Assembly (NCBI RefSeq): GCF_003334255.1
Contig: NZ_QOWU01000072.1
Length of the DNA: 19,162 nt
Reading direction: 5' to 3' (one strand)
Source: Escherichia coli
GTDB lineage: Bacteria > Pseudomonadota > Gammaproteobacteria > Enterobacterales > Enterobacteriaceae
Position 1 is the first letter of the stretch; each line of letters begins with the position of its first letter. Shown in pieces: positions 1-626 of the stretch. Made by a program: the position numbers and the translations under genes. The notes under the pieces are model-generated. The model was not told the origin of the DNA and made no database searches. It saw only the letters and a list, made by a program, of their open reading frames with translations.

Positions 1-76
1 GGGTCGTTAGCTCAGTTGGTAGAGCAGTTGACTTTTAATCAATTGGTCGCAGGTTCGAATCCTGCACGACCCACCA
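1..76 (+). tRNA. lysZ: tRNA-Lys (anticodon UUU), 76 nt with encoded CCA
   Basis: Sequence gggtcgttagctcagttggtagagcagttgacttttaatcaattggtcgcaggttcgaatcctgcacgacccacca is the canonical E. coli tRNA-Lys; anticodon loop cTTTTAAt gives UUU. Symbol assigned only by synteny (penultimate Lys tRNA before nadA), so it is tentative. Confidence 0.95.
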
Positions 77-129
77 ATTTAAAGGTGGTTACTGGTAGAG
101 AACGTGAAGGATAACGTTGCGTTAGCAAC

Positions 130-174
130 GGCCCGAAGGGCGAGACGAAGTCGAGTCATCCTGCACGACCCACC
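130..174 (+). repeat. tRNA-Lys 3'-end-like fragment, copy A (ggcccgaagggcgagacgaagtcgagtcATCCTGCACGACCCACCA)
   Basis: The last 18 nt are identical to the 3' end of the tRNA-Lys genes at 59-76 and 266-283; a near-identical copy lies at 397-440. Confidence 0.8.
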
Positions 175-207
175 ATCCTGAATGATTAAGGCAGCATAAT
201 CCCGCAA

Positions 208-283
208 GGGGTCGTTAGCTCAGTTGGTAGAGCAGTTGACTTTTAATCAATTGGTCGCAGGTTCGAATCCTGCACGACCCACC
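208..283 (+). tRNA. lysQ: tRNA-Lys (anticodon UUU), identical copy
   Basis: 76 nt identical to 1-76. Last tRNA before nadA, followed by a hairpin plus T-tract. Symbol by synteny only. Confidence 0.95.
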
Positions 284-290
284 AATGTAA

Positions 291-316
291 AAAAGCGCCC
301 TAAAGGCGCTTTTTTG
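291..316 (+). terminator. Rho-independent terminator of the tRNA operon
   Basis: aaaaaaGCGCCctaaaGGCGCttttttgc: 5-bp GC stem, 5-nt loop, T6 tract immediately after the tRNA. Confidence 0.8.
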
Positions 317-396
317 CTATCTGCGATACTCAAAGATTCGAACCTGCAGCAGGTTTGAGTTGAGCGCAGCGAAACAACGGAGCCGCTCGCGGCGAC

Positions 397-440
397 GGCC
401 CGAAGGGCGAGCGAAGCGAGTCATCCTGCACGACCCACCA
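397..440 (+). repeat. tRNA-Lys 3'-end-like fragment, copy B
   Basis: ggcccgaagggcgagcgaagcgagtcatcctgcacgacccacca; near-identical to 130-174. Confidence 0.8.
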
Positions 441-476
441 ATGTAAAAAAGCGCCCTAAAGGCGCTTTTTTGCTAT
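423..476 (+). repeat. 54-bp direct duplicate of 267-320 (tRNA 3' end plus terminator hairpin and T-tract)
   Basis: atcctgcacgacccaccaatgtaaaaaagcgccctaaaggcgcttttttgctat occurs identically at 267-320 and 423-476; the second copy includes a second terminator hairpin at 447-472. Confidence 0.85.
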
Positions 477-626
477 TCAGGCATCCTCAATTTCACTTTG
501 TAAACCTGATGACATCGTCAGAGCTTACTGTGCAAGCAACTCTATGTCGGTGGAATTAGGCGTAAAATGACGCATCCTGCACATTAGGCGTAATTCGAGT
601 GACTTTTCCCCACCATTCGACTATCT

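Follow-up and report, generated by a model that had tools for sequence, protein, structure and literature searches.

RtT-family modules and tRNA 3′-end repeats in the distal lysT operon of Escherichia coli

In a first-pass annotation made from the letters alone, the first 480 bp of a 19,162-bp stretch of Escherichia coli DNA (contig NZ_QOWU01000072.1; here the window) were described as tRNA-Lys genes embedded in a mosaic of tRNA 3′-end fragments with a duplicated terminator, and the fragments were read as scars of past recombination or integrase activity. The pieces within positions 1 to 476 belong to two members of the RtT family (RF00391), which is already known and annotated. How these members are built, where else they occur and how they come and go between strains is set out below.

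The distal lysT operon and its repeats

Bases 1 to 716 of the window match E. coli K-12 MG1655 with 100% identity. The window opens in the distal end of the lysT tRNA operon, in the order lysZ, lysQ, nadA; lysZ begins with the window itself, and the start of nadA is at 717. Two intact tRNA-Lys(UUU) genes had been described; the one at 1 to 76 stood as given, but ARAGORN placed the second at 209 to 284 rather than 208 to 283. No ORF longer than 44 amino acids was found within 1 to 716, and a promoter scan of positions 1 to 1000 found no σ70-like promoter. The features of the region are the following.

1-76, plus strand: tRNA-Lys(UUU), lysZ by K-12 position (ARAGORN; Rfam tRNA, 79.2 bits; 100% identical to MG1655)
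77-175, plus strand: short (S) RtT-type module, body about 100-175 (RF00391, fold, covariation)
84-88, plus strand: S outer arm, GGTGG
103-112, plus strand: S 5′ arm, CGTGAAGGAT
115-130, plus strand: S hairpin B
131-141, plus strand: S hairpin C
144-152, plus strand: S hairpin D
158-175, plus strand: S 3′ arm plus pseudo tRNA-Lys 3′ end
176-208, plus strand: lysQ leader, 33 nt, the sole spacer remnant in strains without the short module
209-284, plus strand: tRNA-Lys(UUU), lysQ, last gene of the lysT operon (ARAGORN; Rfam; RefSeq)
267-476, plus strand: 156-bp tandem unit (tRNA 3′ end, terminator and L body), 1.35 copies
289-315, plus strand: Rho-independent terminator 1, AAAAAAGCGCC CTAAA GGCGCTTTTTT (inverted repeat)
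321-440, plus strand: long (L) RtT module (RF00391, 46.7 bits at 315-440; RefSeq ncRNA "RtT sRNA")
327-359, plus strand: L 5′ hairpin with the inverted T-arm copy 335-347
382-393, plus strand: L hairpin B′
392-411, plus strand: L core
411-417, plus strand: L mini-hairpin, GCGAAGC
423-440, plus strand: L pseudo tRNA-Lys 3′ end
445-471, plus strand: Rho-independent terminator 2, same as terminator 1 (inverted and direct repeat)
573-582, plus strand: weak copy, 10 nt identical with the end of a module

The repeats at 1 to 480 are real and far beyond chance. The exact 54-bp duplication described earlier was recovered, with 267 to 320 and 423 to 476 sharing 100% identity. Two fragments resembling a tRNA 3′ end, placed at 130 to 174 and 397 to 440, are similar as claimed, but their true span is about 125 to 175 and 392 to 440, with two 1-nt indels. 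Within these spans, 125 to 144 and 392 to 411 are 95% identical, 152 to 175 and 417 to 440 are the same over 24 nt, and the final 18 nt of both copies (158 to 175 and 423 to 440) are those of the tRNA-Lys 3′ end (59 to 76 and 267 to 284). As a chance control, 1,000 dinucleotide shuffles of 285 to 716 were scored for their longest match to the tRNA, giving a mean of 7 nt and a maximum of 11 nt compared with the 18 nt observed. The 20-nt core GCAACGGCCCGAAGGGCGAG occurs in the 19-kb window at positions 125 and 392 only (expected number, 0). The window holds no other repeat of ≥20 nt, which agrees with the earlier view that this is its sole non-trivial repeat region besides the IS1 end (starting at 19087).

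An inverted fragment of the T arm is likewise present. The sequence GATTCGAACCTGC at 335 to 347 is the exact reverse complement of 49 to 61 and 257 to 269 (13 nt), a length reached in none of 5,000 shuffles of 321 to 396; the 16-mer originally listed sits at 335 to 350, not 337 to 352. A weak partial copy had also been suggested near 574 to 584. Here a 10-nt exact match, CATCCTGCAC, was found at 573 to 582, flanked by an 11-nt direct repeat, ATTAGGCGTAA (555 to 565 and 583 to 593), and a match of this length was reached in 8 of 5,000 shuffles. Strain 74-2 lacks it at the equivalent site, and the copy may thus at best represent what is left of an earlier module end.

A 156-bp unit is arranged here head to tail; the 54-bp repeat is where its copies overlap, and the terminator is thereby duplicated. 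Both terminators lie on the plus strand, and each has a stem of 11 nt that pairs perfectly around a 5-nt loop and is followed by TTTTTT. The proposed tandem terminator behind lysQ proved to be two identical copies. A simple terminator scan did not list these two plus-strand terminators and was given no weight. Behind the unlinked lysV gene stands the same terminator-L-terminator block, and over 268 bp, counted from the start of the tRNA through the second terminator, lysQ and lysV differ at one base. A 156-bp period was also found in a Klebsiella sp.

RtT modules behind stable-RNA genes

RF00391 matched the region twice at or above its gathering score of 45 bits, at 315 to 440 (46.7 bits) and at 8 to 175 (60 bits). 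The first match is a narrow pass and has the same coordinates as the RefSeq annotation "RtT sRNA", found in K-12 and many other strains. The second is partly an artefact, with the genuine T arm of lysZ borrowed as the 5′ hairpin and a 43-nt insertion skipped. Spacer 77 to 175 alone scored 43.4 bits, just under the gathering score, and aligned to model positions 47 to 130; the 5′ third of the RtT model is absent from this and the other lys copies internal to the operon. In K-12, an S module lies in each of the operon's four long spacers. RefSeq annotates only the long copy, leaving the operon's four short copies, the Arg copies and one 5S-linked copy unannotated.

Each of the two modules here lies directly 3′ of a tRNA gene, in the orientation of that gene, and closes with a copy of the final ∼18 nt of its host tRNA, CCA included. 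The core pattern consists of CGTTGC-loop-GCAACG, GCCC-GAA-GGGC and then a variable GAA-type hairpin, and the 3′ strand of the module copies the 3′ half of the host's T stem, the 3′ strand of its acceptor stem and CCA. The 3′-end copies previously taken for free-standing scars are instead the built-in 3′ ends of RtT modules, as RF00391 and, for the long copy, RefSeq delimit them. Nor is the inverted T-arm piece a separate fragment; it is one arm of the 5′ hairpin of the long module, a hairpin in which the 5′ half of the T arm occurs once inverted and once in direct orientation.

The short module was predicted to fold into a closing stem and three hairpins (z scores of −2.7 to −3.5), with 8 of 9 pairs formed in the closing stem, or 9 of 9 in the copy at lysW. 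Covariation was assessed for the three proposed hairpins on an alignment of 52 distinct cores, using 500 shuffles and slid controls. Pairing was observed in 94% of cells compared with 86% in the shuffles, and 47 cells had changed on both sides compared with 10.9; neither value was reached in any of the 500 shuffles, and the slid controls all collapsed. Hairpins B and D covary, with D carrying most of the signal (one of its pairs is GC in 24 cores, CG in 11, UA in 5 and AU in 4). Hairpin C was fixed by the search pattern, and its invariance is therefore uninformative and gives no signal. Rfam pairs CCCGAAGGG with an upstream T-arm-like segment; this pairing was set aside for the short copies, which lack the segment, and a local GCCC-GAA-GGGC hairpin was assumed.

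The 5′ arm of the closing stem tracks the host-specific 3′ arm, being GTGAAGGAT/ATCCTGCAC for Lys, GGGAAGGAT/ATCCTTCCC for Tyr and GGGAGGAT/ATCCTCCC for Arg. A compensated change in the arms, AGGAGGAT/ATCCTCCT, was found in Pseudescherichia (L057). A swapped-arm control of the closing stem, in which 8.0 pairs of 9 were compared with 7.0, was only weakly discriminating because the arms all share ATCC. For the Arg(ACG) module of E. coli, the predicted closing helix spans 13 bp and leaves ACCA free (z score, −5.2). Selection on the structure of the module is supported by these covarying hairpins and host-matched arms. In the long lys copy of E. coli, only 6 of 9 closing-stem pairs are formed, compared with 8 to 9 of 9 in the long lys copies of Erwinia and Enterobacter, and this degenerate stem suggests decay in E. 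coli.

A scan of reference genomes for the core pattern, with tRNA genes called afterwards, identified at least 120 stretches. Among the matches listed, at least 72 were modules located 3′ of a tRNA gene and ending in that tRNA's own last 18 nt (≤3 mismatches). Their hosts, again among the matches listed, were as follows.

Lys(UUU): 31 modules
Tyr(GUA): 25 modules
Arg(ACG): 12 modules
Pro(UGG): 2 modules
Pro(CGG): 1 module
Arg(CCG): 1 module

With RF00391, the Pro copies, the Arg(CCG) copy and a single long Arg(ACG) copy reached 71 to 101 bits; several tRNA types thus already fall within the family as curated. Among the matches listed, the modules are conserved throughout Enterobacterales and also outside that order. 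Members of the RtT family adjoining Asn and Lys tRNA genes have been described in a paper on Actinobacillus. A variant located behind 5S rRNA ends in the 5S 3′ end; in E. coli this 5S-linked variant is unannotated and was present in 574 of 5,426 genomes. Among the matches listed for one E. coli reference genome, the core pattern lay solely at tRNA and 5S loci. Dispersed and tandem relatives of the core that lack tRNA ends were found, among the matches listed, in Alcanivorax, Pectobacterium and Brenneria, and the colinearity of these relatives with the 5S-linked module of E. coli extends across four hairpins. Core identity was 0.80 between modules of the same host type in different genomes and 0.69 between modules of different types in the same genome. 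The cores thus group by host tRNA type and not by genome, which indicates old vertical descent rather than recent spread.

The closest known system is the RtT (RF00391, rttR) of the tyrT-tyrV operon, from which RtT was originally described and whose repeats have been known for forty years. The lys modules have its conserved core, its same-strand site directly 3′ of a tRNA gene, and its 3′ end, which copies the last 18 to 19 nt of the host tRNA including CCA, although this end is that of tRNA-Lys in the one operon and of tRNA-Tyr in the other. Both operons have a copy in the spacer between two tRNA genes. In tyrT-tyrV this single copy is joined by three behind the last gene, each ending in the tRNA-Tyr 3′ end, and the array behind tyrV has 178-bp repeats, with three full units and part of a fourth, compared with 1.35 copies of a 156-bp unit at lysQ. 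The lys unit also carries a Rho-independent terminator, placing its downstream copies behind a stop, whereas the tyrT repeats have no such hairpin, and the long lys copy of E. coli has a degenerate closing stem, unlike the tyrT-tyrV RtT. REP/BIME arrays are similar in that small hairpin units stand in tandem near gene ends and terminators, and the RtT-core relatives in Pectobacterium and Alcanivorax form arrays of this kind. Unlike REP/BIME, the E. coli core is, among the matches listed, confined to stable-RNA operons and carries the 3′ end of its host.

Strain variation and expression of the lys modules

Comparison of strains showed that the number of fragments varies across E. coli genomes, as the first-pass annotation had predicted. 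Between lysQ and nadA, strains 74-2 and O157:H7 E32511 have no L unit, AML002_ev03 has one, and E01 has three at an exact 156-bp spacing; with K-12 included, the five strains examined in detail have 0, 0, 1, 1 and 3. Distinct architectures were seen in four of these five strains. Behind lysQ, the natural strains examined carry between 1 and 4 terminators, and O157:H7 has one tRNA-Lys gene fewer. A census using a unit-specific 102-nt query, counting both loci, identified the L unit in 3,243 of 5,426 complete E. coli genomes, at 1 to 5 copies per genome. Each short module is also present in some strains and absent from others.

Where a spacer is empty, it consists of the 35-, 51- or 33-nt segment that lies 3′ of the pseudo end in filled alleles, apart from scattered substitutions. 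The lysZ-lysQ spacer of E01, for example, is the 33-nt segment (176 to 208) with one base different, the S module being precisely absent. Since the empty spacers match the segment after the module, loss takes the module together with one copy of the tRNA-end repeat. Among the matches listed, Citrobacter, Enterobacter, Pluralibacter and other genera have modules at the same positions of the operon, and it is because of this agreement between genera that empty sites in E. coli are read as losses.

Taken as a whole, it is highly probable that positions 1 to 476 represent the distal lysT operon with two RtT-family modules that recombine at tRNA-end repeats, with no integrase. The RtT module would be a stem-closed bundle of small hairpins, and the copy of the host 3′ end that it contains would be what looked like tRNA 3′-end fragments. 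True and pseudo 3′ ends are direct repeats, between which recombination or replication slippage would delete a module precisely, and unequal exchange between 156-bp units would alter their number; an integrase would play no part. It is the alleles that point to this putative mechanism. RecA-dependent exchange usually needs more than a repeat of 18 to 24 nt, and the acting process may instead be slippage, or exchange that involves entire tRNA genes. The earlier proposal of recombination or integrase scars therefore stands in one half, in that the strain alleles present the repeats as both product and substrate of recombination; its integrase half is unsupported, as the repeats enclose just 102 nt of conserved RtT and no foreign DNA.

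Transcripts of the lysT cluster were studied by Agrawal, Mohanty and Kushner (PMC4176162), who described one primary transcript of ∼1,100 nt, terminators of identical sequence at lysV and lysQ, and the terminator function of what is here the first copy. In their account, the terminator is cut off ∼2 to 3 nt past CCA, a cleavage that they mapped at lysV and for which they made RNase P mainly responsible; this enzyme then proceeds 3′ to 5′ along the lysT precursor; the 133- to 150-nt spacers end as 3′ trailers that are removed by exonucleases (PMC4176162). Cleavage of the lysV type is presumed to take place at lysQ also. Northern blots of the wild type with spacer probes gave few intermediates, and no stable spacer RNA was reported (PMC4176162).

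A length of ∼1,100 nt fits an end at terminator 1, from which we infer that the L copy is outside the main transcript, whereas the short copy, being inside the operon between tRNA-Lys genes, is part of the single ∼1.1-kb primary transcript. The short modules would be spacer RNA whose terminal helix mimics a tRNA end and which is removed during tRNA maturation. The long copy would be transcribed solely by read-through of terminator 1, and has in E. coli the look of a passenger in decay. Given that no stable spacer RNA was reported from the Northern blots, the short modules may have no independent life as RNAs, although this sits uneasily with their covariation. The 3′ ETS of leuZ is a tRNA transcribed spacer with a role of its own. 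The lys spacers resemble it as spacer RNA of a tRNA precursor that may be able to outlive processing, but no stable product was reported for them in the published blots. For tyrT, the rtT RNA is a processing by-product with a possible effect on the stringent response, according to Bosl and Kersten (1991) as cited in passages of PMC4986893 and PMC2965389.

Alternative readings and implications

Under the integrase reading, an element entered the 3′ end of tRNA-Lys, displaced it and decayed, leaving repeats of the attL/attR type. Direct repeats of the tRNA 3′ end do flank a short insert 3′ of an intact tRNA gene, identity begins within the T loop, the crossover site of many integrases that target tRNA genes, and what lies between the repeats is lost as precisely as by excision. 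However, the DNA between the repeats is not foreign but a 102-nt structured member of a conserved RNA family with covarying hairpins, and the same design recurs behind each tRNA-Lys of the operon, behind Tyr, Arg and Pro tRNAs and behind 5S rRNA. No integrase remnant was found in 1 to 716, in keeping with its lack of longer ORFs. The L module had no real match in 50,697 phage records, and its plasmid matches were mostly to megabase-size "plasmid" records, the one small record examined (50 kb) being a fragment of the chromosomal gltX-valU-lysV locus that carries pieces of gltX. Together with the grouping of cores by host tRNA type, which fits old vertical inheritance, these findings largely refute the integrase reading, and we regard it as extremely improbable. 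A broader mobile origin, in which a REP/MITE-like core settles, or once settled, at stable-RNA 3′ ends and duplicates the host end, accounts for a core joined to six tRNA species and 5S rRNA among the matches listed, for the relatives without tRNA ends in Alcanivorax, Pectobacterium and Brenneria, and for sites that are present or absent and bounded by repeats; the similarity of rtT to BIME-like dispersed elements has been noted before (PMC2965389). It is nevertheless unlikely, as the cores cluster by host type and not by genome, the module positions are common to genera, and loss and amplification account for the polymorphism in E. coli. Within E. coli the module was not seen at any new insertion site, the element has no linked transposase, and the phage and plasmid records examined gave no real match to the L module. 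The dispersed relatives and the BIME-like similarity do make a mobile origin in the distant past conceivable.

Two further readings assign the modules or their terminator a function. They could be released as stable, trans-acting RtT RNAs, acting for example on the stringent response, and the hairpins and closing stem kept by compensatory change would suit such a role, as would the possible effect on the stringent response ascribed to the tyrT by-product in the cited passages and the reported expression of RtT members in Klebsiella and Actinobacillus. Against this, for every module there are natural E. coli strains that do without it, the long copy is preceded by an efficient terminator and its stem is degenerate, and the published work on the lysT operon reported no stable spacer RNA (PMC4176162). 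The "RtT" expression calls of 166 to 170 nt probably include overlapping tRNA reads (compare the match at 8 to 175), and a functional small RNA appears about as unlikely here as a mobile repeat. Still less likely is a fail-safe terminator kept by selection, the second copy shielding the nadA promoter from strong read-through of the tRNA operon. Two identical strong terminators 156 bp apart do lie upstream of nadA, but the range of 1 to 4 terminators in natural strains means that the second is not required; moreover, the same duplication stands behind lysV next to a different neighbor, and the terminator is duplicated along with the whole unit. A role involving anticodon nuclease or a phage decoy was considered and dropped, as the modules have no anticodon arm.

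For this window, the reading of two RtT modules recombining at tRNA-end repeats matters little, as it concerns a known, annotated repeat in the best-studied bacterium. For E. coli as a species, it marks the lysT-nadA interval as a structural hotspot in which the number of tRNA-Lys genes, the spacer modules and the number of terminators all vary, and this affects assembly, typing and any work that assumes the K-12 spacing. For the family, a more speculative and on balance doubtful proposal is that a core of three to four hairpins, shared with dispersed REP-like arrays in Alcanivorax, Pectobacterium and Brenneria, becomes fixed at the 3′ flanks of stable-RNA genes (tRNA Lys, Tyr, Arg and Pro; 5S rRNA) by copying the terminal helix of its host; the module would then imitate the paired ends of a tRNA or 5S rRNA and be handled by the maturation enzymes of its host RNA. 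The predicted fold of the Arg(ACG) module, a 13-bp acceptor/T-like helix with a free ACCA, has the geometry of an RNase P minihelix substrate and would fit such a mimic. If this is true, RtT would be a general "terminal-helix mimic" in the processing or decay of stable-RNA precursors, or else a selfish hitchhiker at the RNA level.

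Copies at the lysine tRNA loci

The terminator-L-terminator block found 3′ of lysQ, in which L is the long form of the RtT module (the repeat family of Rfam RF00391), also lies 3′ of lysV in the valU-valX-valY-lysV locus of K-12 (L127, 754-1033), where RefSeq NC_000913 carries no RtT annotation. The lysV and lysQ blocks differ by one mismatch in 268 bp, their outer flanks are unrelated, and the two loci are 1.7 Mb apart. This pattern is suggestive of gene conversion between the two loci or of a recent copying event from one to the other. The lysT operon of E. coli O157:H7 E32511 (L005) has six tRNA genes rather than seven, with one tRNA-Lys fewer, and contains only one short-form (S) module and no L unit, the 156-bp tandem unit of tRNA-Lys 3′ end, terminator and L body. 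Further along the window, an 11-nt direct repeat (ATTAGGCGTAA; 555-565 and 583-593) brackets the weak CATCCTGCAC copy; from 555 to 593 the sequence diverges strongly from its counterpart in strain 74-2, with flanks that can still be aligned.

Modules behind other RNA genes and dispersed relatives

A module was also identified downstream of a 5S rRNA gene (E. coli SCPM-O-B-8794, L101, reverse strand 1-170; L024, 80-231). It combines the RtT core with an additional hairpin rich in A and ends in a pseudo 3′ end of 5S rRNA (AACTGCCAGGCAT), has a very strong predicted fold (z −6.9), and is present without annotation in 574 of the 5426 complete E. coli genomes searched. Two short copies lie behind tRNA-Arg(ACG) in the E. 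coli serV-arg tRNA cluster (L100), undetected by Rfam at gathering score. Their predicted fold (z −5.2), with a 13-bp acceptor/T-like closing helix and a free 3′ ACCA, is shaped like an RNase P minihelix substrate.

A dispersed repeat forming tandem arrays of 74-81 nt in Alcanivorax (L034-L048, L068-L073), Pectobacterium (L074, L075) and Brenneria (L124, L125) shares with the RtT core the hairpins AACGTTGC-loop-GCRACG and GCCCGAAGGGTGA and a variable hairpin with a TCAT end, followed by an A run. It is positioned between gene ends and terminators, and one Brenneria copy lies directly 5′ of a 5S gene. None of the three stretches checked (L038, L075, L125) gave an Rfam match at gathering score.

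ORFs and composite RtT matches

Two short ORFs rich in arginine cross the RtT core (window 360-446 and 104-181, both plus strand), one of them being MSAAKQRSRSRRRPEGRAKRVILHDPPM, with a TTG start. Tpr (MRSFDQGSTRAPARERCRRQRPEGRSAQR), annotated as a "protamine-like protein" at tyrT, has RRPEGR-like residues in common with MSAAKQRSRSRRRPEGRAKRVILHDPPM, since one conserved core is translated in the same frame in both; such ORFs are probably sequence by-products and not genes.

At the far end of the window, an IS1 left end (GGTGATGCTGCCAACTTACTGATTTAGTGTATGATGG...) occupies 19087-19162 and continues past the edge. The ORF that it overlaps may be a disrupted gene:

18254-19099, minus strand, ORF with its 5′ end overlapped by the IS1 left end

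Rfam RtT matches of ∼168 nt in tRNA operons (window 8-175; equivalents in L001) are composite and take in most of the preceding tRNA. The published Klebsiella "RtT RNA" features of 166-170 nt (PMC4147364) are probably likewise composites including the upstream tRNA, and their expression values may therefore reflect tRNA reads.
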